Shown here piece by piece: positions 93 through 39,353 of a DNA stretch of 40,489 nt; positions within the stretch are counted from its first letter, which is position 1; each line of letters opens with the position of its first letter. Under the pieces are notes generated by a model. It was not told the origin of the DNA. It saw only the letters and a program-made list of their open reading frames with translations, and did not search any database. This DNA is from Catajapyx aquilonaris (Eukaryota), in assembly GCA_000934665.2 (NCBI GenBank), contig JYFJ02003527.1:1-40489 (forward strand), read 5' to 3'. A program made the translations under genes and the position numbers.

Positions 93-920
93 ACTGTAGG
101 TGGTCGAAATTAGGAACTTGATAACTTTCTACTGTGGCTGCTGGTTCACATCGACAAGTTGCAGCATGATGTCGCTACTTTAAAACATGCAAATAAACAG
201 TGTAAGCAACATCATAGGCTAAAAGAAATTATTGAATAGCATAGCTTAATTGCTGGGAAATGATGGCCAATAATAGCATACGCTGCAGTCTACCATGCGC
301 TTAGAAACAAACTGGGGCATCAGTGCTGCCAGCTCACCAATTCCATCTCTGCACATTTTACCACTGTCACCGGCAATTTGCAGCACGTTACCACAGAGAT
401 ATCTTGGTAGTTGGAATATGAAGCGCTTAGAACAAGTGGCCCAAGTCCAAAAATGCCCTTTTAGAGATAGGAATGGCTTGTGTATTCAGCTATAACAGAC
501 CTCGGTTATAACAAGACTGATCCCTTGAAGTCTATTATATCCGGATTCAATTTTATTACACCCAGTCAACAATGGTGTAAGTCCATGATTCTGTAGGATC
601 ATTATGGTGTAAGTCACATATGATTTTTTATCAATAAATCAGTTTTTTTGTTACAGTAGCAATACATCTAAAAAAGACTGCCATGTAATGATTGCCAATC
701 TGACATAATATGGATCGAGACATATGATTTCTCTTTCGAACTTGCAGGCGAATTATCCCAACTTGAGCTTTTTGGACTAGGGCCACTTTTGCCTCATATG
801 GACCCCTTCCCCTATTCATTTTCGTGTACAGGAATCTGAGGAATGTATCAGTATACTGGTATAGTAGGCATTCACTAAGGTATGAGCCTCTAACTCACAT
901 CAATTTCGGCATCCCTGCAG

Positions 921-1387
921 TTTTCTGACATGGTCCGCCTGAACTCGATTCGGTGTGGAACCGACACTTTGACTGATGAGGTCCGACCATACTGCATGGA
1001 CAGCGATCATTTGGACCAGGTGGTGCGCCATCGCTTGGTGGTGACTACTTGCAATGCATCAGGGACCTTCTACACTTTGGGCCTTCCCAATGGACACTTT
1101 ACACATGTGTTCATAGACGACGCAGGGTATGCCAATGAGCCTGAGGCACTGGTGCCCATTGGCCTTCTATCCACCAGTGATGGAGAAGCACAGGTGGTCT
1201 TGGCAGGAGATCCGAAGCAGCTGGGACCTGTCCTCACCAGCCATCTTGCCAAGAGGAATGGACTGGAATGCTCACTCCTTGAGAGACTTACTGCTGAAAA
1301 CCAACTGTACCAGAGGGATGATGTCAAATTTTCCCATGATGGAAACTATCACCCATTACTTGTCACAAACCTGGTCATCAATTACAG
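921..1387 (+). CDS. armi: helicase exon (motifs Ib-III)
   Basis: Acceptor ccctgcag|TTT at 920/921; donor TACAG|gtatgg at 1387/1388; phase 2. Confidence 0.85.
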
Positions 1388-3504
1388 GTATGGTTGTTGC
1401 GTTACTATAAAGGAACATGTACAGTGCTTGCAAATGGGATAAATTCAGCAGCAACAAAGGGACCTGTGACTCTCTTTCAACACTGCATGTTCTTGTTGAT
1501 GTTTCATTAGTCATTTGCTGCTTAAATCATGATTTTTTTTCACTCCTTTCTCTGCCTTTATTTCACATGTTTAGATCGGATCCCCTCCTTCTGAAATTTC
1601 CATCGAGGATGTTTTACCACGATGAACTGATAGCAAAGGCCGATCTAAGCAAGTGGGCTGACTTGCGGAAGCTAGATATCTTCCCCACAAAGTCAGTGGC
1701 CTTGGTGTTCTGTGGTGTCAAAGGGGAGAATGAGCAGGACAAGCACAGCCCATCCTGGTACAACAAGGCAGAGGTGTTTGAGGTGTGGCGGCACTTGCAA
1801 GTGCTCTACGATCAGGGAGGTCTGAAGCCTGAACAAGTTGGGATAATCACCCCATACAGGAAGCAGGTAAGATTTTTTTTTTCTTTCTTAGGAAGTAACA
1901 GTACTGTAGGTACACTCAAGGCGGTCTCAAGTAGTGTATGTGCTTGAAAATGTAGTAATCAATGATCAATCCCTTGTGTATGAGGCATTCCAAGGCCACC
2001 CTTCCGACAAATCCTTGAGGACCTTGACCAAAATTTAATGGCAGGTATACTATTCATTGACTTATGTAGGAAGCCAAATTATTACACCTCTGTGTTGCAT
2101 GGTTTTGTACTACAGGGTGCGGAAAAATTTAAAGTCAAAAGTTTGCACTCCAATTTTGATTAGGATATTTCTCAAACTTAGACACTTTTGAGATTTTTTG
2201 AATGACTCTTAAAATATGGCTGGACATGTCTGGCCGATATTTCCGATAACTCTACGAGGACGATTTTAGTCTTTCACGCTCTAGAAGCCAAAACGAAACC
2301 CTTGTGCATGCATGTGGACCAGCTTGCCCGCCTTTCCGCGTATGTATCCATCGTTCTCACTATCTGGATGTAATCCACTGCAGCTGGCTTTATGTGACCT
2401 TTACTTCTATCTGCAGATATCTTTCATACCCAACTGAAGAAAAGTGTAATTTTTTGTTGTTTGTTTACACACATAACAACGCCCTTTCCACATGCAGTAC
2501 GCGTAGAACACAAATTAGTCATTTACGACAAAGGGCAAGGCGGGCTGGCTGGCCCACACGCATGCACACGGATTACGTTTCGGCTTCTAGAGAGTGAAAG
2601 ACCAAAATCGTCCTCATAGAGTTTTCGAAAATATTGGCCGTACATGTCCAGCCATGTTTTAAGAGTCATTCAAAAAATCTCAAAAGTGACTATGTTTGAG
2701 AAAAATCAAAATCAAAATTGGAGCACCAATTTTTGACTTTCCATTTTTGATTCTCTTAATCATCGGAATAGTGAGTTAAAATAGGCATCCAATGCACACA
2801 TCAAGTTTAGGATTTGTACTTATCCTCTAGGAGTTATGGTAATCCAAGTGAATGCATGAGAAGCAAAAATCTGTATAAATTGGTAGATTCCGCACCCTGT
2901 AGTTACGCAACCAGTTACGCAACTCGGAGGTATAATAATATTCGGCTTCCTGCATAGGTCGATGAGTAGTAGATTGTCGCTAAATTTTGGCCAAGGTCCT
3001 CACAGACTTGTCAGAAAGGTGGCCCGCTTGGCGTGGAATCCTCGTATATACTCGTCCATTCTTATTTGGGTGCACTGATATGATTATTACATAAATTTTT
3101 CCCTTCCCTTTCTCACTGATGGAACATCACAGGTGGAGAAGATATGCCATCTCTTAGATGACAGAAACGTCCCTAAGCCAAAGATTGGGTCAGTGGAGGA
3201 GTTCCAGGGCCAAGAGAGAGTGGCCATCATCCTGTCAACCGTTTCATCAGTGAACGATTTGCGCAAGATCAACCAGATCTTCAACTTAGGTTTTGTTGCC
3301 AGCCCAAAGCGAATGAATGTGGCCCTAACAAGAGCAGAGGCCTGCCTGGTGGTGATTGGAAACCCTCACTGGCTGGCTCTGGACATGGAGTGGAGGGCCT
3401 TTTTGTCCTACGTGTACGAATTAGGAGCATACAAAGGATGCGAAATGCCACGTATCGTGATCAGGGGGGACGATGATGAGGATGGGGTCCCTAATGTCTA
3501 TTAG
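921..3504 (+). CDS. armi: Armitage/MOV10L1-like SF1B RNA helicase, 3' part only; join(921..1387,1575..1866,3133..3504)
   Basis: Spliced translation contains the SF1 Upf1-like motifs HVFIDDAG (II), VLAGDPKQLGP (III), NYRS, GIITPYRKQV, IGSVEEFQGQE (V) and KRMNVALTRA (VI). YHPLLVTNLVINYRS and KIGSVEEFQGQER resemble MOV10L1/Armitage. Junctions are GT-AG and phase-consistent. Motif I exons were not found and are presumably upstream of the window. Confidence 0.88.
1575..1866 (+). CDS. armi: helicase exon (RSDP...TPYRKQ)
   Basis: Acceptor tttag|A completes the AGA codon; donor AAGCAG|gtaaga. Confidence 0.88.
1981..3044. mobile_element. Composite foldback/MITE: outer TA-flanked element with ~130-bp inverted arms (1981-2110 / 2902-3044)
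   Basis: TA|TGAGGCATTCCA... matches ...TGGAATCCTCG|TA; gaggaccttgaccaaaattt matches aaattttggccaaggtcctc. Confidence 0.75.
2113..2899. mobile_element. Inner Tc1/mariner-type MITE (TA|CAGGGTGCGGAA...TTCCGCACCCTG|TA) with ~210-bp internal inverted arms
   Basis: 12-bp perfect termini with TA flanks; ~2125-2340 is the diverged reverse complement of ~2530-2750. Confidence 0.75.
3133..3504 (+). CDS. armi: helicase terminal coding exon (motifs V, VI, stop TAG)
   Basis: Acceptor cacag|GTG; encodes SVEEFQGQE and KRMNVALTRA; TAG at 3502-3504. Confidence 0.9.
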   Translation: MEKICHLLDDRNVPKPKIGSVEEFQGQERVAIILSTVSSVNDLRKINQIFNLGFVASPKRMNVALTRAEACLVVIGNPHWLALDMEWRAFLSYVYELGAYKGCEMPRIVIRGDDDEDGVPNVY

Positions 3505-8900: not shown

Positions 8901-9532
8901 CACGTCCCGTTTCCATGGTAATGTAACAAACATCAATCATTGTTTTTTGAGGCCATGATAATCCTACTGCCGTGAACAAACAGACAAACTTCACCTTACA
9001 CAGTACATGTAAGACTTTTATTATTATTGTTCATCCAGTGATACTTCTGTGCCAATCATTCCTATTTACCCCTAGCAGCTGTTATGCAACGTGCAAGGGC
9101 AGCCTTCCCACAAGTTTCCCAGCGCCTTGAAAGTCAGGGCCCCACCTCTAAACCTGTGTGAAAGGTGTTCTCTCCCTGACACTCACTATAGTAGATCCTG
9201 TACGAGGCTGTGTTTGGGGATCCCCTTTCCACAGTGGTGAACATGCCGGCAGTGGTTGCTGCTGCAGCGGGGGCGACTCTGGCTCTGGTGGTCCAGGTGG
9301 GGCAGAGGCGGATGGGGAGGCAGCTGCAACCGTCCGTCTGGAGCTGGGAGAGCGGGGGCAGGAAGCGTCTGGCCACGGGTCCTATCCGGGGCAGAAGGGA
9401 AGGGCAGGAGAGCAAGACTCGTTTGGCCACGGCCGGCAGACGGGGAGACATCACGCGGGGGGAAAAGGCAAGCAGGTTTTGTCTGGTTGGCGTCCTTGGG
9501 AGCAAAACAGCCGGCGTCAGGAGTGCCAACAT
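5919..9532 (-). CDS. Nurf-38: Soluble family I inorganic pyrophosphatase (PPA1/PPA2/Nurf-38-like); complement(join(5919..5953,6266..6372,6452..6665,6979..7105,7194..7280,7428..7547,8257..8378,9187..9532))
   Basis: Motifs [67 protein letters not shown] and C-terminal [11 protein letters not shown]. All introns are GT-AG and in phase. Product is 289 aa from ATG 9244 or 385 aa from ATG 9532. Confidence 0.95.
6266..6372 (-). CDS. Nurf-38: PPase exon 7
   Basis: acag|T TCA...[14 protein letters not shown]...LDPI G|gtaagg. Confidence 0.88.
6452..6665 (-). CDS. Nurf-38: PPase exon 6
   Basis: [35 protein letters not shown]...TG|gtgagt. Confidence 0.93.
6979..7105 (-). CDS. Nurf-38: PPase exon 5
   Basis: VAKCGEV...[14 protein letters not shown]...QLN G|gtatgg. 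Confidence 0.93.
7194..7280 (-). CDS. Nurf-38: PPase exon 4
   Basis: TWENP...[14 protein letters not shown]|gtgaga; carries the catalytic Asp motif. Confidence 0.93.
7428..7547 (-). CDS. Nurf-38: PPase exon 3
   Basis: [13 protein letters not shown]...WNYGALPQ|gtaatt; 120 nt; not in ORF track. Confidence 0.93.
7705..8025. mobile_element. Degenerate pogo/Tigger-like MITE in PPase intron 2
   Basis: tacactgtactcccaattatccagg versus reverse complement of cccggataatcaggagtagtgta; internal gataat subrepeats. Confidence 0.55.
8257..8378 (-). CDS. Nurf-38: PPase exon 2
   Basis: ttgcag|AG AAT...ISPFHDIPL...NAKME|gtgagt. Confidence 0.93.
8495..8647. mobile_element. Hairpin MITE (~55-bp inverted arms) in PPase intron 1
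   Basis: tcggagatccacctataaaacgttgattgctaaacaggaaaa pairs near-perfectly with ttttcctgtttagcaatcaacattttataggtggatctccga. Confidence 0.75.
9187..9532 (-). CDS. Nurf-38: PPase exon 1 (ATG 9532; internal in-frame ATGs 9451 and 9244)
   Basis: Ends ...[21 protein letters not shown]|gtgagt. Start choice uncertain. Confidence 0.8.
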
Positions 9533-9538
9533 GGGACG

Positions 9539-9546
9539 TGACGTCA
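9539..9546. promoter_or_regulatory. Perfect CRE palindrome TGACGTCA just upstream of the first PPase ATG
   Basis: Motif match in a GC-rich 5' region; function untested. Confidence 0.35.
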
Positions 9547-9762
9547 AAGCCGGCGCCGGGGTTGCCACATCGACCCCGCACTCTTTGAATACGGCTATAG
9601 TGAGCAGTATTATCAGTAAATTCGGTTCTGTCTCAATATTTGGCAACAGTGTGGCCTTGATTCATGATCAATCAGATGGGATGTCTGTAAAGTGATTGAT
9701 TGAGTTCCGGGTGCGGTGTTGCAGGGACACGCAAACAGTGGGGCACAATAATTCAGGCCGTT

Positions 9763-10711: not shown

Positions 10712-10927
10712 CTACATGTGGCTGGCAGAGCTTCGCTGGAGCATCTGCATCATGGCATCTAGACTGGATGAGAGGCAGTCTGCGAAATTGAGTGACATGG
10801 TGTTCTCGCAGGCCCTGAAGCAAGTGAGACAGAACACGATGCAGTCCGGATGAGGATTGTACGCTGCTCCGTAGCCGTCGGGTACCACAGCTCCGTAGCC
10901 CATCACTGTGTCCTCTCGTGTTGGAAT
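10712..10927 (-). CDS. ChAT: ChAT terminal coding exon
   Basis: gacag|IPTREDTVMGYGAVVPDGYG...SHM TAG. Confidence 0.93.
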   Translation of the reverse strand: MPTREDTVMGYGAVVPDGYGAAYNPHPDCIVFCLTCFRACENTMSLNFADCLSSSLDAMMQMLQRSSASHM

Positions 10928-13900
10928 CTGTCGGTGAGCAGACACACTGCGGTTATTCATCAAACTGGTCCCCAATGGCCAATATGATGGATCTGACCTG
11001 GCTTGTGGACAGACTGAAGTGGTTGGCTATCCGGTACGATTCGTCCTCAAATATCTCTGGTAAGGGCTGACCACTTTCTTTGGCCATCTCTCGTAGGCCG
11101 AGCAGGTGTATGTCGATGCCCTCTCCTAGTATGTTCTGTGTCATGATGTTGGTTTGAGCCTCCACCGCTTTCCAGAACAGTGCAGCCTTGTCCTCATCCT
11201 GCGATCAGTCAACGTTTTCGTCAAAACCATTAACGCGACCGAGAACGTGAAACATGGGTCCAACGCAAGTCCTGCGCATGCGCGTTCCAAGAACTCGTGC
11301 GCTGTCCTTCTGCGCATGAACTTACATGCGCATGCGCAGGACCCACTTTTCACGTTTTCGGCGTAACTCACCGGGGCTTCTCCGACCATGGCCTGGACCC
11401 ACTGCAAAGCCTCCATGTGTGCTGATCTGATGCAGTCCACGCGTCCTAGTCTGAACCTACGTGTTGATGCGCTTTCGTACGTGGCCACCATCTTGCGATT
11501 CAACCTGTGCACAACAATTTATTTTGTGGAGTGTAAAAGTTACAATGAGGGGGTGTGTACAGTGCGGTGTCAGGCATACCCGTAGTATGTTAACTGAAGG
11601 GCGAGTTGCAGATAGGCATCAGGGCTGACTTTGCAGGACTTGATGAAGTCCTTGCCATACGCGTTGTACCGGAACACTTCCAGGTCTAGCTCGTCGATGA
11701 GTCTGAAATTGGCAGTAGTATGAAAGAACAATGGCGACAAAAATATCAACAGGACATAATAGGATAATATGATATTTGCAAGGACATCTGAGAAATTGCG
11801 TTGCACACATACGTTATTACAGTCATATGAAATTTATTGCAATTTCAGCATTGAAATGTCTTACATTAGGATTAGAGTTAGTAATATGAACTAAATGCTA
11901 ATTTAGCATTTAATACTTTAAAATATGTAGTCAATATATTGTTGCGCAGTACATTGCCGCCCGAATAGTTTATAGGCCTAATAAAATACAGAAATGATAG
12001 GCCTGTTCTTGATTATCGAGTCCTCTCATGGCTTCATTTAGTTTTTCACTTAGGATAGATAAGCTGCTTCATAATCATACCGTGCTTATGGCACGATAAA
12101 TCATACACGTAATAAAGATAGCGCAGTCTAAAAGGGTAAGGTCAGGACGTCTTTAGATCGCGATTAGATTGCGGCCAATAAGTTTAGTTGTAAATAGCAA
12201 CACTGCACTGCGTACTTTAAAATATTCGTCCCCTGTGCATATACTTGGCACTGGGTTAATGACTAATCAGCATCTGCTGATCAATTTCCGTTGGTATTCA
12301 TGCTGACCCAGAACTATGTCCTGTTTGTATTGCATAAGCTGCCCCAGCCAATGACCTGGTGACGGTACTGTTTTACTTAGTGCTGGTACGACAATATTGA
12401 AATGCACCTGTCGATATTGTGGGAGCATTCCTGTATGACTCGCAGCATCTCCTGTCCGATGTTCCACTGCAGCTTCTTGGGGTGGTCCAGCTGCTGGGAG
12501 GCCTTGTCTCCTGCAGATTTGATCCCATGCTGTCTCATCTTCTGAATAAAGTCGTCGATCAGCTGTACCACCGCGATACCTTCGGACGGGGAGTGCTCGT
12601 AGCACAGCCCGACCACGCCGTCTGACCCGACCACGACCTGCACCGTCTTGTCGAACCATCTGTTGGCCGTGTTGCATTTGGATCCCCCGCCATGCAGCAT
12701 CTGGTGGAGGTGGCTGGTCTCGTCGCGGGATGGCATTGACGTTGCCATCGACGATGAGTAGGTTGGGTTACCAGGGACCAGATGACGCTTGCTGTTGAAT
12801 TTTCGGGGGTCCAGAGGCTCGTCCAGGCACACCAGGAACGCGCATGTCTCCAGCATCTCCAGGGATGTGCGGTTCGTCGGATCTGGAATATTGCACATGC
12901 AAAATATTCAATGTAATGATCAACATCTAATTATTAATTAGATAAGTAATGAGATATGACCACTGAGGACATACCGCTTCTGAGGGCATCTCTTGCATGT
13001 GCCCACACATCTCTTCGTTCCGCGGTCAGGATTCCAACTGGAACAGCTGCGGTTCGTCCAATAGTTTGAACAATCCGATGAAGCTGAGTCACTAGCTCAG
13101 CTTCAGTCAGGCGCCATCCAGCTACTTTTACTTTTAAAACATAAAACTGTAAGATAAAACCACCAGCCTTAATTTGATTTATTGGCGCCAGTGAGATATT
13201 AAGGTTGTGTCCATAAAATACGTCATGCTGCCAGTGGTACATAAACTAACATTATATTAATAATAAATTTGCTAATATAGGCCAAAATATATTTAAAAAA
13301 ATTGCTATCCTTTTTAAAATATTCAAACGGTGAGGACGGTTGGGGACAGCGTTACGTACTTTTTGCAAGGGGTCTGGCCCAGCGTGACTGTGCGTGACAT
13401 GATTTATTAATGTGGAATGAAAACACAAAGATCAGAGTGACGTACTTTATGTCGACCCCTAAGAAATGTAGGATATGGTTTTTTAAACAATACCTGTATT
13501 CGGCTTCAGTTGTCGTACTCCTGCTATGCTAAGCAAATAGCTCTAAGATATAAAATACTATACGGAGCCCATCATTTCGGGGGATTACCTACCTGTGTTA
13601 ATAAGTTAAATAAATGCAATTGAAATAAATATACCGGTATGCAATTAATTATAAATATTTCATTCTACCTGTAGATCTGAAGGTATTCTCTCCAACGAAT
13701 TGATGCCATTTTAGAACTACTGTACGCCATACGACATTAACTTCACTCCTGTAACCTGAACCAGCTAATGTCTTTCCCCATTTGATGACATTATTTTCCC
13801 TCCACTCCTGGTATTACTTACTGAGCTTCGGTCCTGCGCTCTCAGGTAACCCAACGAGTAAAACAGCCATCATGCTCTGGAAGTGTGTGCGAAAGAAACC

Positions 13901-16900
13901 TGAAACGACGAACTGCCATGGAGAACTTAAAGACTGCGTGCATGCCGTGCATTTACGAGTAGCCAATTATAGGATAACGTATATAAAAGTGACAAGCGCC
14001 ACATTGAAACGTCAGGCGAAGTTCTGTCTTATATGTTACCTCCTTCTTGTAGGCCACGACGATATGCTCGTTGTCTGGAGGACCTTCTGTTCTAGTTGAC
14101 CTCAGGTAGTCCCTGGGTAGGGCTGGTACGCGGTAGGTGGTAAACAGACGGTAGTATTGTTCCATGCAGAGTGGTTGGCCCTTCTCGCGGGATGTGGCTA
14201 CGTCTTGAGGAAGGGCTCGTCTGTTCAATGGGAATTAATTGTGACTTCTTAATTAATACGTTAGGCACTTTCTTGCACCAGAATATATTTTTTTGTTAAT
14301 TTACTTGTGTCTTCTACGTCGATGACATTTGCAGGAATATGCAATGATTATGTTTTTAAATTACATTAATATTTAATATTTGCTTACTCGTTCTGAAAAG
14401 CGCCAAAATTAATCTCAGAAACTATATAATCCGAGCAAACCATTACGTTCTTCATATCAGTTTGGCCTGTTTGAGGCAAAAACACCATTTTTACGCGATG
14501 ATGTAATACCCTCATTCACAACATAACGGCAGTGACGTCAACCAAGTGGAAAAGTTCAGATTGGTGGGTGGTAACTTCAGTTAAGGAAGAACGTCACAAC
14601 CGGGCCATGTGCCAAAAAACATTTTGACCAATTCAGCTTGGTATTTAGCCAACTTTGTATGCATTTAGATTGCAAATTCTACAGATAAATCGTTGGTAAT
14701 ACGTGAAGTTGTGAGACGAAACGATCAAAGTGTGGCAGGCTTACAATATTTTCTTTCCATTTTTCTTTCTGTAGAACAGTAGGCTACATTGTTGTTCCCA
14801 TTTTCCAATTTTCTCACCAGTTGCCTACAGGTATCGGGATGCACCTGTTTTGAATCCCATAAACAGAACCGGGGAGCAGCAATCGTTACGTAACCCTAGT
14901 TCCCTCATCTGCCACCATGCGTCGGGCCATGTCCCTTTAAAGTCATCCTACACCCAGACCCCAGCAAGGTGAATCGATCTCTGGTTCCGACACCATGCAT
15001 ATATAGAGGCAGCCAGCACGCAATGCACCTCACGAAACCCTCTACTCTATAGGGGAAAATAAGAAGAAACCTAGCTACACATTTTCGTCTGGAAAATTAC
15101 ATGCGCGTGTAGGAAACTACGATTGAAAAAAATATATATATTGCTAGGCCACCCCCTTCTCTGAAGGTGTTAAGCTGATTAGGAATCCGGTCCACCATTT
15201 TGAGGAAGTGGTCCCTGGAGGATTATCATCTCCAATGAAGCGGTTCCATCCCCTCCATGTTCCAGACAAAATTGCTCATTAATTAATGATTTTAAAATCC
15301 GCTCTAATCCGGTATGTGTCATCGGGAGGATTTTTCGCGCTGGTTTCAATCCTAAAATCCGGGACTTAATTGGTTGGAACCAGTTTGGGATGGGAAATGC
15401 CGTTCATATCGTACTATAGGAGGTTAATTTTTTAAATACACACCATAGAATAGTTGAGCGAATTTCCGTGTTCTAGTCGGATTTATTTGGGTGAGCCATA
15501 ACAGCTGAAGTAGTAGGATATAATGTATTTGCACTTTCTAGGAAGAATGTGTTAAAATTTTCGGACATTTATCGACACAATATATGTGGTGGTGCTTGTA
15601 GATACTTTCTGTGGAAAGATAACTCAACTGTTAAATATTTCACTTCTCATATTACGCTTCCATAGACAGAGATCATAGGTCGAATCTTCTTCATTTCAGA
15701 CAAGATCCTATATCCTATTACGTACAGTGTTGAAACTTCTTAAAATAGCTTTGCACATTTTGTTCATGTCCTGCACGCCCTGGCAATTTCCCATCTCTTA
15801 ATTAAGAAAGGATAAAAACAGCCACAAACTTCCAAATCCCCTTCTGACTATCAATATCCACACATATCTTTTCCCCCTAATTTCCTATTCCGGTCAGAGG
15901 TCGGATTACATTTCCCATCCCTCCAACCCCCACTTTTCTCTCTCAAAAAAAGAGAAAAAAAAATCCCACCCACTGGTTATGTGAGACCATCCGAAGGTCA
16001 AAGGGCACAGGTGCAGCCGGATTGATTTTCCAGCTCAGGCTCAGCGACTGGGACTTTTTTTTAAAATATTATCCCTCCCACCTGCACACCACCCACCATC
16101 AATTGCACCGTACCTATCCAGCACGTCCTTGTAGTCCATCAGGAAGTTGATGATTTTGGCCGCATAGACCAGCTGGTCTTGAATGGAGTGGAACGTTTGT
16201 TGTGGAAAAGCCATTCCTGGATTGGAGTTGATGGGTAGTGGTAGCATGTTGTTCATATACATGTCCTCCAGCCACCATTGGTATGCCTGGAATATGCAGA
16301 TTAGTGCAATATTTCTGATAGCTGTTCAGACAAAAAAATGTTGAAACACCTTGTATTTGGTCTGGCTGTTGTGAAATCTCGGTTTTATCTCTTCCGATAG
16401 TGCCTTTGTGAGGCTTGCTTAGCGCTCCAAGCACAAAAGCTACTCAAGAGCTCGGATCCTCCAGGGGTGCATTAACGTACTGAGAATCGGTATAGAACCG
16501 ACCTTTGACCTTTTGAACCCCAATATTGTTCCAAAAAAGTGAGGCTACCACTTGACATGTCGCGTGTTGTTTTATTCGGTGTGTCCGTGTGGGAAAGACG
16601 CACGTCATAATTTTTCCAATATTGTCCTTTAGTGACCCCATATTATGCCGTGACGTCCGATGCAAATGTGAGGCCAGAAAGCACACTGCGGGATTCATTT
16701 ATACAGGACCACACGTCATGCCAATAGGATTTCGTGGCATTCATATCGGATGGTATTGATTACTGTCCACAGAAGCGTGAGAATCTATAGATCCGATTGT
16801 ATCTGGACTATAAAAAATGAGCGCTGTTATTATAGCGAACTAAAATCTGCATGACGTGCATGACAAAGATTCAATCAAAATGTCGCAAACGTGGACAGGT

Positions 16901-18302
16901 GACTGTGAGAACACCAAAAATAGCCAGTGAAAAGCAGCTAATTAAATAGTATGTTCGTGCACATTTTTACTGATATATCTAGTGGCGAAATTCTTTATTA
17001 TGATTTGTCCTTGCCTGAAAAACATGGGTCGCAAGTATCCTGAAAAAGGGGCCTAAACCAATTGGCACGCGTGGCCCAGTAATTGACAGCACAAGCAGAA
17101 AACACATGTAGCCATCACTTCTGCAAACATCCACATCCATCTCTTGCCGGTTAATCCAAATCCTGATTCAAATGAGCGTAACGTGGTTAACACGGGTTCG
17201 CCTCTTTGATTAATCCCCGTAATCGAATCAATCCTTCCGACCTATCGCATTAGGGACCTGTCCGGGATTCGAACCCTGCACCTCTAGAGATATGTGTTTG
17301 TTCATTACTAAGGATTAGATTTTTAAAAAATGGATATCCTTAACTTCAATATTGACAAGCAAAATTTACCGACCCCCCTCCGACGTGTGATTTAATTGCA
17401 GACGTGACGTCACGATGCTTGGCTCCACATCGTTAGCGCATAATCAAACGGGCTTCCGGCTGAGTTGTTTCGACTTCCGCTTTTCCTCCCACGTGACTGA
17501 TTAGCGCGGGCAAAGGAGTGGAAAATGCGATTGAAAATCAATTTCTATTTGGTTGCCGCCCCCAAGAAATTGCTTGTTTGATCTCTCCGCCAGTGAGGGA
17601 AATTCTTGTTTTGGTAATGGAGGTTGCACATACAGATGCGGTGGTTTACTGAATGAAACGGATTTATGCTTGAAATATTTTTGTTTAATATTTAAATATA
17701 TTATTTTAAAATATTAAACTAGGCCCCTATGGCTGATAGTGAGACAATTAATAGTTCCTCCTTCCGCCCACCAAAGGCGCTGCCTTCTCCCATTGCGCCG
17801 GCGCAGAACGGGGGCCAATAGGAAGCTTCGCACAAACAATGTACGGCAGGCCAATCAGGAGCCCCACCCAAGCAACGATTTTAAAAGTAGCCTATAAATG
17901 AATCACTACATCACAATAACTAGGCTAAGGAGAAAAAATACGTATATACACACAAAAGGAGCCTTGCTAGAGTGCTGGCGCTCCAACTGGTATTATTTCA
18001 AGACATGCTGTTCTTCCCTGCGCATTTTATTTTTTTATTCCATAATATTTGACGCCCCTTTCAAAAGAAATTCTTAATATTACAATTTTATTATTAGTAA
18101 GATATTAGTAAGATATTAGTAAGATATTAGTAAGATATTATTAGTAGATATTGAGTAATCAGTAGTAAGATATTAGTGGATATTCAGTAATCAGTAGTAA
18201 GATATTAGTAGAGATTATTAGTAGATATTAGTAAGATATTTGTAGATATTAGTAAGATATTTGTAGATATTATTAGTAGATATTAGTAAGATAGTAAGTT
18301 AG

Positions 18303-18385
<83 letters not shown>

Positions 18386-21300
18386 GTAATTTTATTATGA
18401 CACTTTAACTTTAACCTACCCCACCTGCTGTAATTATAGACTTTTCCGAGCCAGAAGCCTAATATTTTCAGCAGTTAGTAAAATTAATTGGGCCGTAAAT
18501 AACCGGTCCATTATCATCTGAAAGTAACCACATCAGGTCTCCCCAGAAAATAGTACATAAATAAGAGGAAGAGTGGACTGCTTTTGTTCGGGTCGATTAT
18601 ATCCCCATCCTTGCTCTTCCCCCCTTTTCCAAACGTAGAGGGGCCGAAGGGCATCCCTCGAAAAAGAAGGGAAAAAAACATTAATTAGATTAGTTACAGT
18701 GGGCCGTGTAGGGTAATGAACAGCCCACAGCACAAGCTGGGAAGGGCAACATGTTTGAGCCCTCCCTAAATACGTGACTCATACTTGGTTCGATACCAAC
18801 TGGCTTCATTTGGGTACGATTGTCTCGTTAGTACCACCAAATTGGATATGAAAAATATTTTTGACTCACCCAGTTCTCATAAATGTCCCTCTTCTCCACC
18901 AGCCTTCTCTGCAGAGGTGGTCCTGGTCCATCTGGTTTCAAGAAGGCATCAACCAACTCACTAGTCCTCTGGTACTGTTCGTCGTTCAACAGTGGTTGGA
19001 CTGCAGCTAAGTACCTCTGCATTGTCGTCTCCAAAGGTGGTACCGGCAACTTGGGCAGTTTTCCATCGTCCTGAAGAATAAAAGCAATGGATCAAATTCG
19101 GCATCAAATTGGCTAGGTGCCCTCGAGGAAGAAAAAGAAGTCTAAGCAATCAATAGGTTGGTCCAGCTTGTTTACATTTAGGGAGGGCTTTTCGGTTTTC
19201 TTTTTCTTCCCTTATTTTCTCCTGGACCGATATTATCCCTGAGGCCTTACAAAGGTTGACATCGGGATTTCGGATCTCATAGACAGAGAAGGATATCGTC
19301 GTGAAATGGTGGGGAGAGGAAGCCAAGTTGTTTGGAAACATCCTCTTCAATTTGGAGAGTGGCACAAGTGGTCATTTAATAGTTGTATAACAACTTGCAT
19401 TACTAATATAAGAGCCAGCGACTTTTTGGTCATAGTTCACTGACTATAAGCCAAGTCAGGCAGATATAAGCCACTATCATGAATGCCTGTTTGTGTACTC
19501 TTTGCCCTCCCCCATTCCAGTCACCACGCCTTGAACCGCAAGTGTTGTGGTCCTCACGCCTCCGGAATGAATCCGGAGCCACTTCATAATAATAAAAAAG
19601 CTTCCAACCTCCCTCCCTAACTATTCTTACATGAGACCAGCCAACCGCACAAAGTTGGGCGAATTACTTCCTAGCCCTGCGTCTAAATCACCCCTGAAGC
19701 CTATTGTACCCCCCCCCCCTCCCTTTCCTATGCAAACTCTCCCCTCTACCGGATAACTTCATCCCCATCCAGCAGAGTTGGTAGGAGGGGTAAGGCCCTT
19801 AATGAGATTCTCCATTATTCATGGTTGCCCGGACTTTTCTCTCCATGGGATGCTTAGGATCTGCCCGAGTTAGCACTTTGCAAGGTAAAGTTCGAGATTT
19901 TTTTGAGAATTGTTGTTTGGAATATTTGCATCCCATGGTAAAGGGTCAGTGTTTATAGGGACTTTAGTTGTATATTATTTTACGCATCTTTTTACAGCAT
20001 AAGTTCCACGAATGTGTCGACTGCGCTAACCGAGGCGTGATTGGCCACCTCAGATGAGGTATTGAACCTCATCTGAGGTGACCAATCACGCCTCGGTTAG
20101 CACAGTCGACATATGCGGGGAACTTACTTGAAAATAATAATCCAGTGTTTTTTAATACCTCATCTGAGGTGGCCAATCACGCCTCGGTATGCAATGGCTC
20201 ATATAATATTGTACAATTTTTCAATCTTTAGTCATTATGCTAGTTTTTTGCTCATTAAAATATCTAAAAATTGAACATCAGCATATCATTTACAGATTAA
20301 GTACACCTTAGCCTGCCTTGTACTGAATCTTCCATACCCAATAAGGTGTGTTATACTCCTGTCGTATTCAATCAGTTGTTCAGCCCTCTTCTGCTAACAT
20401 CATTAGTTTCTGGGAGGGGATATCAAAAAAGAAACCCGAGACTGGGAAAACGTAACCTCGAGAGCAGGGTCGCGCCCCTTGGTAGATAAAGTACCTCATT
20501 TTAATCCAGTTTCGACTTTCCTCATTAGCCCTTTCCCCTCTGAACAATGCTAATCATGCAATTTTCTGATTATAAGGTGCGCAAACTGTGGCCGGATCTT
20601 CATTACTTTGGGTTTCACATTAAAGGGTAAGGTGTTATATTGCCGCATAGTAAAGACAACGGAGGTCTTGGAATTTGGTGAAACATGCAACGGTTGTACT
20701 TATGCAAATTCTTGCATGTTATTTGCATATTTCGTTTATTACATTTACAGTCATATCAAGTTCCTGTAGTATGTACTTATCTTTCATTGTTATGCTCGGT
20801 ACAATTTCTTGTCACCTACACTATACTTTACGTGCATCTTAGCAGCACTATGATTATTATCTTCATTGTTATATTACGTGACATTTCCTTGCTGGCCACA
20901 ACAGACCGTGCTAATGAATTAAACATGCAATATCTTAATCCAAGTTTGTCCCCATTTCGAGCTCGCCATTTCAAAAAAGGATTCGATTGAACCACCAAAA
21001 TGGGTTGGCAAATCCGGTAATTATTCCTACGCAAATGCTCGCGTGTGCTGGTGCCCAATAGGCAATTAAATAGGAAGGTCTGTAACCTAGCTGCATGTGT
21101 GATGGGGTATAGGGACCTAACATATATCGAGGCTTTATATCCATTAGGGGGACAGGTAACACAAAACTCTGGGTAATCTCCCCCACAAGATCACTTAAAC
21201 TGGAGGACAAATTAGGGAATGGGAGTGGAAAATCGATGCTATTGCGTGAGGGTAATGTTCGTTAGGAGAAACCTATAGTTTAATGGGTTGGAAGGTACAA

Positions 21301-33605: not shown

Positions 33606-35498
33606 TTAATACCCAAACCCTTGTTTGAACGGGTTGGATCCGGTGGTACCTTGCTGTACATTGCTGGCTGGCGTACTTTGCCTAAACGGATTGTTGTCCA
33701 CCGGTGCCTGCTGCTGGTATTGCTGCTGGGGTTGCTGTTGTTGGTACTGTTGAGGTTGTTGTTGCTGGTATTGTTGTTGCTGTGGTTGTGAGGAAGGCGG
33801 AACAGGAGGTCGGGATGATGCAGGTGGTCTGGAAGGCTGGTTCTGCTGGGAATAACCAGCCGACCCGTACGACTGGTCCTGCGACTGGTTGTGGTATCCG
33901 TTAGGACCGACAGCGTCTATGTTAGTCTCGGTGATCTGGGTCGCCTGTCCGTCGGCGCACGGTTCTTCCTGCAGCTTGGAGTAGAGGAGGTGGTTCTTGA
34001 GTTCGTTGAGTATCGGCCTTGGACCCGAGCTGTCGTGCATGGCGTATGTCTGGTACTGCTTGTCAGGTGGGTCGCCCATGATGATGTTGGCCTCGTCTTC
34101 GAACGGCTTGTAGTCGTAGATGTTACGCAGGAAGGCCAGTACCGGTACGTACATGAGGTTGGAGATCGCGATGCCGATGTTGAGAGCCACGAACCCGATC
34201 GTTTGAACCACACCGCCAGCGATGATGGGCCCGATTGCGTATGCCATGGAGTAGGATATGTCGGCTATGGCGTAGATGCTGCCGTACACCGACACATGCC
34301 GTACGTCCACCAGGTATCCGAGTGTCGGCAGCAACGCGGTGTCGATCAGCGCGATTCCGAAGCATATCCCGCATATGGGTATCATCAGCACCCAGTACGA
34401 CGTGGCCATCGGGACTATGAAGCAGCAGAGACCCTCCATGGCCAGACCAATTGCAGCCATGAGCCACTGGTACTGTGGGTACTTTTTAGCCATTTTGACA
34501 GTCAGCACCACGCCGAAGACATGTGGGAAGAAGGCCGGCAGCCAGATCATGCCCATCTGCCACTCCACCACGTCCATGTGGTCCATCATCCAGAGGGATA
34601 TGGTCGGCTCCAAGAAGGCCAGAGACACATTGGACATCATGAGTGCTCCTGCGCACACCGCGATGTACGGGTCCATCAGCAGCTGCCATATTGGGGTGCC
34701 CTTCTGGTGCTCCATACTCTGCTCCTTCAGGATCTGCTTGATCGGCTTCATCACCAGAAGCAGCATGAGACCATCAGCCAGACAGACAAATGCCAGGACC
34801 AGGAAGGGAAACTCCTTCCCGCAGAACTCGTACAGGATGCCTCCGAACGGGGGCGCTACCAGACACCCGAAAGAGATGAAGGCCAGGGCTATACCCAACG
34901 CCTGTTGTCGTTCGTTCTCTTCCGTGAACCTGTCCGCAATCATGGCCAGTCCGGATGTGTCAGCGAACGCGGACCCAACACCCTGAAGACTACGTGCAAA
35001 AAACAGCACGCTGTAGCTGGTACCGCACGCGAACACGGCCGTCGAGAAGAACATGATGGTGAGTCCGACCATCATCGGGATGTCGTACCCTATCCTGTCG
35101 ATCAGCGCTCCTGAGAAAGGGTTCACCATCAGCTGGATCATGGCTTTGGAGGCGAACAGCACCCCGATGGCCGAGTCTTCTCCTTCGTACACGATCATTC
35201 CTTTCATCAGCCTCCCAGGACCTGCCGCTACGCTGTAGTTTCCAGTGGCGTTGACGTGCCACGTGGGCGCATCGGTCACCATCACCTGGCCCTCGGTGTG
35301 AGTGTCCCACACCCCTATCTTCCGGAGGTAGTCCGGTATGATGGGCACGATGACCATATAGAGCATGTTGTCCAACAGGAGGGCTATGGACACGATGACC
35401 AGGACCAGCCTGCGTTGCGCCCTTGGTTCTTGAAGTCGGTCCCATAATGCGGCCCTCAGGTCGTTCAGCTCCAGGTTCAGCCCCGGTACCGTCGGCAT
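33606..35498 (-). CDS. VAChT: Vesicular acetylcholine transporter (SLC18A3), intronless, 630 aa
   Basis: Motifs ALLLDNMLYMVIVPIIPDYL, LFASKA, RSLQGVGSAFADT, LAFLEPTI, ALIDTALLPTL and YGSIYAIADISYS; Q-rich tail; Kozak ACCATG; same strand as and upstream of the ChAT exons. Confidence 0.97.
   Translation of the reverse strand: MPTVPGLNLELNDLRAALWDRLQEPRAQRRLVLVIVSIALLLDNMLYMVIVPIIPDYLRKIGVWDTHTEGQVMVTDAPTWHVNATGNYSVAAGPGRLMKGMIVYEGEDSAIGVLFASKAMIQLMVNPFSGALIDRIGYDIPMMVGLTIMFFSTAVFACGTSYSVLFFARSLQGVGSAFADTSGLAMIADRFTEENERQQALGIALAFISFGCLVAPPFGGILYEFCGKEFPFLVLAFVCLADGLMLLLVMKPIKQILKEQSMEHQKGTPIWQLLMDPYIAVCAGALMMSNVSLAFLEPTISLWMMDHMDVVEWQMGMIWLPAFFPHVFGVVLTVKMAKKYPQYQWLMAAIGLAMEGLCCFIVPMATSYWVLMIPICGICFGIALIDTALLPTLGYLVDVRHVSVYGSIYAIADISYSMAYAIGPIIAGGVVQTIGFVALNIGIAISNLMYVPVLAFLRNIYDYKPFEDEANIIMGDPPDKQYQTYAMHDSSGPRPILNELKNHLLYSKLQEEPCADGQATQITETNIDAVGPNGYHNQSQDQSYGSAGYSQQNQPSRPPASSRPPVPPSSQPQQQQYQQQQPQQYQQQQPQQQYQQQAPVDNNPFRQSTPASNVQQGTTGSNPFKQGFGY
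33706..33790 (-). repeat. Coding Gln-rich repeat in VAChT tail (QQYQQQQP-like x3)
   Basis: Translation SQPQQQQYQQQQPQQYQQQQPQQQYQQQA. Confidence 0.9.
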
Positions 35499-36962: not shown

Positions 36963-36968
36963 TTTATT
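36963..36968 (-). terminator. Candidate polyadenylation signal of the VAChT-like paralog (second candidate 36668-36673)
   Basis: AATAAA on the minus strand ~80 nt after the stop. Confidence 0.4.
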
Positions 36969-37046: not shown

Positions 37047-38621
37047 CTAATGCACATAATCGTACGGCACCGGTGCCCTCATAATGTTGGGTTGCTGCAC
37101 ACATGCAAAATATCTGGGCATCGGCGGGTCATCCAGCAACACACTATGATCCGCCAGCATCTGCAAGGGTTGATTCTCATTGGCATCGGCCACATTGGAC
37201 TCCTCCACGTACAAAGACCGCAACGAAATGAGGAACGGAGCGAAGAGAATGGCACACAGCCCGATGACGTACATGAGCGGGGAAAACCCTATCAACTGCA
37301 CCAGTCTCTTGGACGTGATTGGGGCCAACGCGAAACCCACGTTGTAACACATGTTGACCAGGGCGAACACCCGTCCGTAAGCAGACAGATACCGAGAGTC
37401 AACCAACGAGGCCATTGTCGGCAGGAGGATCATGTCGATTAGTGTGACCCCGACGCATATACCGCACATGACCACAGCCAATTTCCAGCAACAGTGCGCT
37501 ACTGGTATCAAGAAGGTGCATACCCCTTCCAGAAGCAGACCAAGTACCAACAGGACCCACTGGTGCTGCGGGTACGAGCTTACCATCTTGTAAGCGGCCA
37601 GTATGGACACAGCCACAGTGGACAGAAATATGGCGGACTGCGTGCCTGCGTTGATTCCCACTAGAGACCGCAAGGTAGGTATGGTGTCGATTGTGTGTGC
37701 CAGGTAGGCAGGGGGTATCCTGGAGATGATAAGGGCACCGGCTGGCAGGATGACCTGCGGGTCCATCAGTAGGAACCAGATGGGGACGCTGACCACTTCG
37801 GTATGCCGGTGAACTAGTCTGGACTTGACAGGTCTGACTATAATGATGCTCAGACCCACTGACAGAAGCAAAGAGGCCTGGAGCAAGAACGGCTCGGTTT
37901 TCCCCACGTGCGAGTACATGTACTCCCCAATCCTAGCGCTGTAGATGATCCCAGCCGAGACAAGCAGCTCGGACAGCCCGTAACCCATGACCCTCTCGTT
38001 TCGACCCCTGATGACATATGCCACCAGCGCAAAGGCAGCAGTCTCCGCAAAAGCCGAGCCTATCCCTTGCAACGCGCGTCCCAGCAAACTCAAGAAGTAA
38101 TTCTCCCCATACGCAAAAGTGACCCCTGACACGAACAAGAACCCAACACCCAAAATCATGGTTAGGTCAGTCCCGTGCTTCTCCACCAGCGATCCGGCTT
38201 TGGGGCAGGTGACGATTTGAAACAAGGACTTGGCAGCGTAGAGGAACCCGAAGCTAAAGTCCCCGTAGCTGTCGTAGTTGAACACGGTCCTCTCTATGAT
38301 GGTGGTAGTGTTGAGCAGAACCCCGTTGTGGTTTCTGGCACCATCCAGCTCCCTCTGGAAGTACGAGGCCAGAGGACCGGTGACGGGCACCAGCTGTATT
38401 CTGGCCGGCACAGTCACCACCCCTCGTTCCATCAGAAACTTGGTGACAATGGTCATGGAGGATCCATTCAGGACGCTGACCAGGAATAGTGTTAGAGGAA
38501 CCACCACGAGGACAAACCGTTTTTGGCAAGTGTCGCTCTGAAGGCAGGAGCAGAGGTAGTCTTTGAGTCTGGTGTTGTTGGAACTGGTTGTTGTGGTGGT
38601 TGTTGTGGTGGTGGTTGACAT
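37047..38621 (-). CDS. Divergent VAChT-like SLC18/MFS transporter paralog, intronless, 524 aa
   Basis: Uninterrupted ORF from GCCATG (38621). Collinear by eye with the neighbouring VAChT: QKRFVLVVV, YAAKSLFQI, RALQGIGSAFAET, PIWFLLMDP, YPQHQW, GICVGVTLIDMILLPTM, LVDSRYLSAYG. Multiple hydrophobic segments. Confidence 0.9.
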   Translation of the reverse strand: MSTTTTTTTTTTSSNNTRLKDYLCSCLQSDTCQKRFVLVVVPLTLFLVSVLNGSSMTIVTKFLMERGVVTVPARIQLVPVTGPLASYFQRELDGARNHNGVLLNTTTIIERTVFNYDSYGDFSFGFLYAAKSLFQIVTCPKAGSLVEKHGTDLTMILGVGFLFVSGVTFAYGENYFLSLLGRALQGIGSAFAETAAFALVAYVIRGRNERVMGYGLSELLVSAGIIYSARIGEYMYSHVGKTEPFLLQASLLLSVGLSIIIVRPVKSRLVHRHTEVVSVPIWFLLMDPQVILPAGALIISRIPPAYLAHTIDTIPTLRSLVGINAGTQSAIFLSTVAVSILAAYKMVSSYPQHQWVLLVLGLLLEGVCTFLIPVAHCCWKLAVVMCGICVGVTLIDMILLPTMASLVDSRYLSAYGRVFALVNMCYNVGFALAPITSKRLVQLIGFSPLMYVIGLCAILFAPFLISLRSLYVEESNVADANENQPLQMLADHSVLLDDPPMPRYFACVQQPNIMRAPVPYDYVH

Positions 38622-39353
38622 GGCCAAACTCTCCCCCTACGTACTTGTTGTGTCTTCTCGGTTTGTCTGGCACGTGGCAGTGGCCGTTGGTGTGATGGAG
38701 GCGCATAGCAGACAACCCCGCCCTCTGTATGCGACGTTGTACTCTACGCAGCAGCGTTCATGGTAGTAGTCTTGAACAGAGAGGAAAACGGAAACCATTT
38801 TCAGTGGGGGATCTTCCTTGTGCAGTCCACATTCAAGAAGCGATTAACCACACCCCAGATTAAACCCAAACGGACGTCATTACCATTATATGCGAATCTG
38901 TCCCGTACACTACGCAAGCCTGCGAATTACAAGTTAGGTAGCTCCGGGGCGCGACCTTCTAGTGCATGTACTGCACTGCGGTTGAGCCGCAAAATTAAAC
39001 AGGGGAATGGGAAACTTCACAAATTAGAAATGAAGTCGTTATTAATGCACAGGTGAAACTGCCGAGGCTCGAAGTGCCGTAGCTTGAAAGATGGACCAAT
39101 ATATTCTAAATAAACTTTTTGAATAAGTTACACACAGCGATATTTCATGCACCCTAAGTGAAAGTCAATTAATTCAGAGAAGTTTCTAGCTGACACACAC
39201 CATGCGGTTGCACAGTCATGTTGTGTGACAATAACTGCGACCATTCACGAAACGGGTGAAAGATATAACTACAGCGTCCCATTGATGTGTCCGTTTCACT
39301 CGGCAATTATTTGCAAGCTAAACTACCTTCCGAAGTCCTAAAATTAACACCCA

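Follow-up and report, generated by a model that had tools for sequence, protein, structure and literature searches.

A divergent VAChT-derived gene with an altered substrate pocket at the cholinergic locus of Catajapyx aquilonaris

The vesicular acetylcholine transporter (VAChT) is usually encoded by a single-copy, strongly conserved gene that is tied to choline acetyltransferase (ChAT) in one locus. In Catajapyx aquilonaris (assembly GCA_000934665.2) the whole of this classical cholinergic gene locus lies within the 40,489 nucleotides of contig JYFJ02003527.1 analysed here (the window), preceded on the 5' side by an additional gene. This gene, hereafter the copy, descends from VAChT and retains the fold, most of the cytoplasmic gate and the sorting signal of its family, while most of the residues which bind acetylcholine or are canonical protonation sites have been replaced and new charges have entered the pocket. 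From its sequence, the copy may be an orphan among vesicular transporters, derived from VAChT but changed in substrate or coupling, a reading that we give about an even chance.

Descent and substrate pocket of the copy

The copy shares 31% identity with the neighbouring VAChT (BLASTP, E 3e-78), and among sequences of known structure it matches human VAChT (E 1.9e-59) and VMAT1 (E 2.2e-44). A careful IQ-TREE tree (37 rows, 453 columns) sets it inside the VAChT clade, with support 100/100 against eight VMAT rows, and the same placement is recovered with FastTree (103 rows) and in a quick tree of 32 rows. On this phylogenetic placement, the copy is a VAChT-derived paralog. Its terminal branch is very long, at 2.61 changes per site against 0.21 for the neighbouring VAChT in the 37-row tree and 3.65 against 0.13 in a tree with more arthropods, a rate of evolution some 12 to 28 times that of its neighbour. 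Within the clade it weakly joins other long-branch VAChT-like proteins (support 92/64), a group which includes two clusters holding proteins of the scarab beetle Popillia japonica; the join of the copy with these beetle proteins is possibly a case of long-branch attraction. In an approximately unbiased (AU) test a sister relationship between the copy and the neighbouring VAChT is not rejected (delta log-likelihood 4.48, p=0.39), which is no proof of sisterhood, and the derived states common to the copy and arthropod VAChTs come down to three diagnostic columns, uninformative for dating the duplication. A local tandem duplication inside the cholinergic locus would be the simplest origin, because the two genes stand in tandem on the same strand and have a common intronless structure.

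Two comparisons served to place the residues of human VAChT on the copy, a MAFFT alignment of 103 SLC18 sequences and ungapped BLASTP, and the lists of acetylcholine and vesamicol contacts are those of the human VAChT cryo-EM paper (PMC11369146). Numbers in the copy count from a TTG at 38627, 37320-38480 being residues 50-436. In the following features the human residue is named first, and TM stands for transmembrane helix.

37047..38621, minus strand: coding sequence of the divergent VAChT copy, intronless, 524 codons (ATG 38621-38619, TAG 37049-37047)
38478..38480, minus strand: TM1, Asp46 (the VMAT2 D33 column) replaced by Val50; Val in 0 of 102 relatives
TM1, same strand: Asn47 replaced by Ser51, and Tyr50 by Asn54
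TM1, same strand: Met51 replaced by Gly55 (BLASTP) or Thr59 (MAFFT)
38229..38231, minus strand: TM2, Lys131 kept as Lys133
38043..38045, minus strand: TM4, Asp193 replaced by Glu195, the carboxylate being kept
37968..37970, minus strand: TM5, Leu218 replaced by Glu220, a new pocket acid; Glu in 0 of 102 relatives
TM6, same strand: Asp255 replaced by Val257
37719..37721, minus strand: TM7, Asn302 replaced by Arg303, a new pocket base; Arg in 0 of 102 relatives
TM7, same strand: Leu305 replaced by Pro306
37698..37700, minus strand: TM7, Glu309 replaced by Ala310, and the next Pro by His311
37605..37628, minus strand: TM8 stretch, Trp331 replaced by Phe334, His338 by Ser341, both prolines lost
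37434..37436, minus strand: TM10, amine-binding Asp398 kept
TM10 and TM11, same strand: Cys391 (TM10) and Tyr428 (TM11) kept
37353..37355, minus strand: TM11, Asp425 replaced by Asn425
37122..37151, minus strand: C-terminal acidic dileucine motif DHSVLLDDPP, residues 493-502

Eleven acetylcholine contacts were scored (Asn47, Tyr50, Met51, Ile221, Ser225, Asn302, Leu305, Ile394, Asp398, Tyr428 and Tyr432). The neighbouring VAChT is identical to the human protein at ten of them, the copy at two, Asp398 and Tyr428; its remaining positions comprise three conservative changes and six radical ones (Asn47, Tyr50, Met51, Ser225, Asn302, Leu305), so that all three contacts of the acetyl group, Asn47, Tyr50 and Met51, are altered. 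Vesamicol contacts follow the same trend, with 5/18 identical in the copy and 16/18 in its neighbour. Two of the substitutions bring charges into places that touch ligands in human VAChT, Leu218 contacting vesamicol and Asn302 both acetylcholine and vesamicol (PMC11369146). The constriction pair of the lumenal gate, Met51 and Glu309, has given way to small residues.

The putative canonical protonation sites of SLC18 transporters are D33, E312, D399 and D426 in VMAT2, equivalent to D46, E309, D398 and D425 in VAChT (as given in the accessible part of PMC12049414). In the copy these are Val50, Ala310, Asp398 and Asn425, the aspartate of TM10 being the sole survivor. The copy carries exactly the alanine and the asparagine of two human mutants: in human VAChT, E309A abolishes vesamicol binding and D425N does not (PMC11369146). 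Three membrane carboxylates are present, Glu195, Glu220 and Asp398. In motif C, called the 'antiporter motif' of TM5 in the portion of PMC5138259 at hand, the Pro-Pro pair has become Ala-Arg, and the second glycine of the Gly-Gly that follows has become Glu.

An initial annotation of this DNA had argued that the paralog lost most of its acetylcholine-binding and proton-coupling residues, and the counts above bear this out. The six motif changes which it quoted are all present where it placed them (LLDNML to FLVSVL in TM1, FADT to FAET in TM4, LADG to LSVG in TM6, FLEPT to YLAHT in TM7, absence of the TM8 Trp and His, IADISY to LVNMCY in TM11), and the TM2 lysine and TM10 aspartate that it took to be kept are found in the alignment as Lys133 and Asp398. 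It had overlooked Glu220, Arg303, the loss of prolines in TM1, TM5, TM7 and TM8, and the retained dileucine motif.

Much of the transporter machinery has stayed in place. The cytoplasmic gate was scored at Ile197, Ala201, Arg210, Leu214, Leu402, Ala406, Tyr417 and Tyr421, where five of eight residues are identical (Ala201, Arg210, Leu402, Ala406, Tyr417) and the others are Phe, Tyr and Phe; in motif A, Asp-Arg has become Glu-Lys, a conservative change. The dileucine motif of the copy matches human VAChT (ERDVLLDEPP) nearly letter for letter, the corresponding stretch of the neighbouring VAChT being DEANIIMGDPP, and a sequon, NTT106, lies in the long first lumenal loop.

Among 16 canonical VAChTs, 123 positions reach a conservation of at least 90%. 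The copy keeps 64 of these, namely 5 of 16 in the pocket and 59 of 107 elsewhere; it keeps 51/82 positions common to VAChTs and VMATs as against 8/27 VAChT-specific ones. Its divergence extends over the whole protein and is rather stronger at the positions that make a VAChT distinct.

A predicted function and its precedents

As an orphan vesicular transporter, the copy would still be a rocker-switch protein sorted to synaptic-type vesicles, with a pocket that probably no longer fits acetylcholine. The fit would be poor because the acetyl-binding residues of TM1 and the Asn, Leu and Glu of TM7 are replaced, and acetylcholine is an unlikely substrate because the Met51/Glu309 constriction now consists of small residues and an arginine occupies the Asn302 position. 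The earlier opinion that the protein is unlikely to transport acetylcholine gains support from the three altered acetyl contacts together with the changes of Asn302 to Arg, Leu305 to Pro and Glu309 to Ala. In the predicted pocket Glu195, Glu220 and Asp398 would stand opposite Arg303 and Lys133, and the copy would probably bind a different small cation or a zwitterion. Arg303 could reach Asp398 (or Glu220), since Asn302 and Asp398 of human VAChT hold the same vesamicol hydroxyl (PMC11369146); placed near Asp398, it would neutralise the cation site or anchor the anionic group of a zwitterionic substrate. Alternatively, Arg303 may pair with Asp398 or Glu220 in a way that alters the coupling between protons and substrate.

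Any proton coupling of the copy would have to use Glu195, Glu220 or Asp398, because it has lost the sites in TM1, TM7 and TM11. The initial annotation had proposed an uncoupled uniporter, a suggestion that finds no support here: the three carboxylates are present, and there is a precedent in human VPAT (SLC18B1), which lacks counterparts of VMAT2 D33, D399 and D426 and yet is an H+ antiporter, as described in the available part of PMC12049414. Loss of canonical sites alone therefore does not demonstrate uncoupling. The same annotation had reckoned that compensating acidic residues, revealed by a proper alignment, would tell against its view; the alignment bears this out in part, through the new Glu220.

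Comparison with the known members of the family helps place the copy. Like VAChT (SLC18A3, unc-17), it has the 12-helix fold of the major facilitator superfamily (MFS), membership of the VAChT clade, an intronless open reading frame (ORF) at the cholinergic locus, the TM2 lysine, the TM10 aspartate, the cytoplasmic gate, the sequon of the first lumenal loop and the acidic dileucine tail. Unlike VAChT, it has lost nine of eleven acetylcholine contacts, three of four protonation sites and the prolines of TM1, TM5, TM7 and TM8, has gained Glu220 and Arg303 in the pocket, and sits on a branch 12-28 times longer. By descent, then, the copy sits in the VAChT clade, but its residues fail the functional signature of VAChT (acetylcholine contacts, protonation sites, motif C), which is why we file it as a VAChT-derived orphan and not as a VAChT. 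With VMAT1 and VMAT2 (SLC18A1, SLC18A2) it shares the fold and the gate, and the Phe at Trp331 and the lack of His at 338 are VMAT-like or non-VAChT states; by contrast, it falls outside the VMAT clade, lacks the VMAT Asp of TM1, Glu of TM7 and Asp of TM11, and VMAT sequences score lower against it than VAChT does (E 2e-44 to 2e-42). It resembles VPAT in being an SLC18 protein without most canonical protonation sites, but it is VAChT-derived, keeps Asp398 and is only distant kin (SLC18B1 comes at rank 19 in the ESM Atlas).

The Popillia VAChT-like proteins KAK9744154.1 and KAK9744837.1 are likewise long-branched, with altered charged residues; both have Glu at Asp193 and one also has Asn at Asp425, but they carry Arg instead of Asp at position 398 and are 26-28% identical to the copy. 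According to the accessible text of PMC8566550, the insect orphan Portabella is a relative of VMAT and VAChT. Among the matches whose names were looked up there was no named Portabella sequence, orthology to insect prt not having been aimed at.

Probable maintenance, possible decay and rival roles

The ORF of the copy spans 37047-38627, with a probable start at the ATG of 38621 and an in-frame TAG six codons upstream of it. Its N-terminus bears a run of ten threonines (38615-38586). Two candidate signals flank the gene:

38771..38772, minus strand: candidate splice acceptor of the copy, a pyrimidine tract then AG, 150 nt upstream of the ATG
36963..36968, minus strand: AATAAA, candidate polyadenylation signal identified by its letters only, about 80 nt past the stop codon

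A short upstream ORF (ATG near 38761) begins just past the candidate acceptor, and an out-of-frame ATG near 38705 opens an ORF of 153 amino acids (38254-38715, minus strand) overlapping the start of the copy. If this second frame lay in the 5' untranslated region, it would lower translation of the copy.

Several properties bear on whether such a gene is maintained. A stop-free run of 524 codons has a chance of about 2e-9 given the composition, and the other five frames hold 7 to 34 stops. GC content at third codon positions (GC3) is 0.70 in the copy and 0.74 in VAChT, for a GC content of 0.38-0.44 in the flanking DNA. The protein matches the Pfam profile MFS_1 (E 1.8e-24). Its AlphaFold2 model, built on an alignment of 77 sequences, has long helices throughout and a confident MFS fold of the SLC18A (DHA1) type, with a mean pLDDT (predicted local distance difference test) of 83.9, a predicted template modelling score (pTM) of 0.85, and 336 of 524 residues at a pLDDT of at least 90; in Foldseek its five best structural matches are all human VAChT, with target TM-scores of 0.88-0.90. 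The evidence favours a maintained coding sequence. Free of constraint, a gene whose protein has diverged by 69% would not have retained its intact ORF, its GC3 and its fold properties.

The rival that survives best, which we nonetheless think unlikely, is that the copy is under relaxed constraint, a duplicate without useful transport that is drifting to a pseudogene or is unexpressed, its ORF being still open. The following points speak for it or weigh against an orphan transporter. The very long branch fits decay as well as it fits a new function. The copy has altered 59 of the 123 positions that VAChTs hold invariant, and the loss in its pocket is not significantly above the loss elsewhere (Fisher p=0.11), as relaxed constraint would also have it. 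Motif C is lost, and none of the conserved prolines in TM1, TM5, TM7 and TM8 has survived, which could impair alternating access. The predicted contact of Arg303 with Asp398 or Glu220 is drawn from the human structure, by way of the vesamicol hydroxyl that Asn302 and Asp398 both bind. The ATG near 38705 and its overlapping frame fit a gene that has fallen out of use.

Finally, no ortholog emerged when 1.84 billion cluster representatives were scanned in full with HMMER, a search that returned 748 matches; the best of these are canonical VAChTs, at most 36% identical to the copy, in a collection where arthropod VAChTs are densely sampled. A word-index search with the copy gave one unrelated MFS protein, a six-sequence profile search two unrelated MFS proteins and no ortholog, and a metagenome scan 43 matching stretches, none of them related. 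That no protein exceeds 36% identity despite abundant arthropod VAChTs implies that the copy is restricted to its lineage or evolves too fast for an ortholog to be recognised.

Against decay stand the intact ORF with its stop-ridden alternative frames, a GC3 far above the composition of the flanks, and the confident model. Neutral drift to such a divergence would moreover have brought stops and frameshifts, and the gate, the charges of motif A, Lys133, Asp398 and the sorting motif are retained.

A second rival makes the copy a modulator, or 'opponent', of cholinergic vesicle filling: a leak, a counter-transporter or a partner of VAChT which, co-expressed from the cholinergic locus, would set quantal size and load no transmitter of its own. 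We hold this to be quite unlikely. In its favour, the copy lies on the same strand directly upstream of VAChT and ChAT, keeps a VAChT-type sorting motif, and has small residues in place of the lumenal-gate pair Met51/Glu309; candidate splice acceptors precede both the copy and the VAChT ORF, and the Ixodes genes for ChAT and VAChT have exon 1 in common (PMC7524744, in the part available). The accessible portion of PMC8566550 describes opponent vesicular transporters from another family. The idea, however, draws on position and analogy, and the 5' exon that the copy would have in common with VAChT and ChAT was not located.

A bolder reading, improbable in our eyes, is that this lineage has a three-gene cholinergic locus in which the copy uses the ChAT/VAChT promoter and first exon and acts in cholinergic neurons, either loading a second small molecule other than acetylcholine, for example a zwitterion with a quaternary ammonium group that Asp398 and Arg303 would hold between them, or serving as the opponent that sets quantal size.

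Very unlikely, lastly, is a residual acetylcholine or choline/H+ antiporter of altered affinity or kinetics, for which speak the retention of Asp398, Lys131, Cys391, Tyr428 and Leu402, the carboxylate preserved in the change of Asp193 to Glu, and the intact vesamicol binding of human VAChT after the change of Asp425 to Asn (PMC11369146), but which has against it nine of eleven acetylcholine contacts that differ, six of them radically, a replacement of Glu309 by Ala of the type that is disruptive in human VAChT, and an arginine now within the cation-binding pocket.

The cholinergic locus, its relatives and their meaning

Read 5' to 3' on the minus strand, the locus consists of the ORF of the copy, an AT-rich spacer of 1.5 kb, the canonical VAChT ORF, and then the pieces of ChAT. 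A tblastn search found only two SLC18 genes in the window, the copy and canonical VAChT. The features of the locus are as follows.

33606..35498, minus strand: canonical VAChT, intronless ORF, 630 amino acids
35882..35883, minus strand: candidate splice acceptor preceding the VAChT ORF (pyrimidine tract and AG, from sequence)
10715..19091, minus strand: ChAT exons in nine ORF pieces, which together span positions 1-573 of the Pfam profile Carn_acyltransf

Identity of the canonical VAChT is 71-75% with the VAChTs of hexapods, crustaceans and horseshoe crabs and 56-59% with those of annelids, chaetognaths and nematomorphs. In the tree it is nested within the arthropod VAChT clade, which marks the source as arthropod-like. 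Its C-terminal tail (33606-33900, minus strand) is a long low-complexity stretch rich in Gln, Pro and Tyr, of a kind that the copy lacks. The ChAT exon ORFs, a complete set, lie 14.5 kb further downstream, counted from the stop codon of VAChT.

The candidate acceptor before the VAChT ORF fits a shared 5' exon as in the cholinergic locus of Ixodes, where the VAChT ORF lies inside the first ChAT intron (PMC7524744, available part). For the copy, position and strand agree with membership of the cholinergic locus, and the two candidate acceptors make a 5' exon common to the copy, VAChT and ChAT possible.

Other genes occupy the rest of the window. Downstream of ChAT, three ORF pieces match inorganic pyrophosphatase (PF00719; 6451-7547, minus strand), and between the ChAT 3' end and these exons sits a GC-rich stretch (9134-9695) with open frames of 115-175 amino acids on both strands that have no Pfam match. 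At 894-3504 on the plus strand, convergent with the pyrophosphatase and ChAT genes, exon-like ORFs carry AAA_11 and AAA_12 domains, that is, a superfamily-1 helicase, Upf1/MOV10-like by domain type.

Beyond this locus, nine other long-branch rows of the VAChT clade, taken from ENA/JGI contigs, have altered charged residues in the pocket (P0021, P0027, P0031, P0035, P0042, P0045, P0054, P0113 and P0150), and divergent offshoots may have sprung from VAChT more than once. An arthropod clade of 14 rows that bear the annotation 'synaptic vesicular amine transporter(-like)' (P0063, P0077, P0108 and 11 more) falls on the VMAT side of the tree, with Gln in 13 rows and Glu in one at the VAChT Asp425 position of TM11; this clade may be the Portabella group.

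Fast-evolving offshoots of SLC18 are not new as a kind, as Portabella and the divergent VAChT-like rows illustrate. What is unusual in the copy, on its sequence features, is the conjunction of a site inside the cholinergic locus, a sorting signal preserved from VAChT and a pocket that has acquired new charges, and no VAChT paralog of this kind is described in the literature searched, judging by titles and the openings of abstracts. Should the copy prove to be a decaying duplicate, the case would be an ordinary one. Should cholinergic neurons express it, a hitherto unrecognised vesicular substrate or some regulator of vesicle filling would be indicated, and a three-gene locus, if true, would amount to a genetically hard-wired module for co-transmission or gain control. 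A protein with a sorting signal and an amine-binding aspartate but a rebuilt pocket is, besides, a natural experiment on the residues which make for acetylcholine specificity, and on those which define proton coupling in SLC18 transporters.

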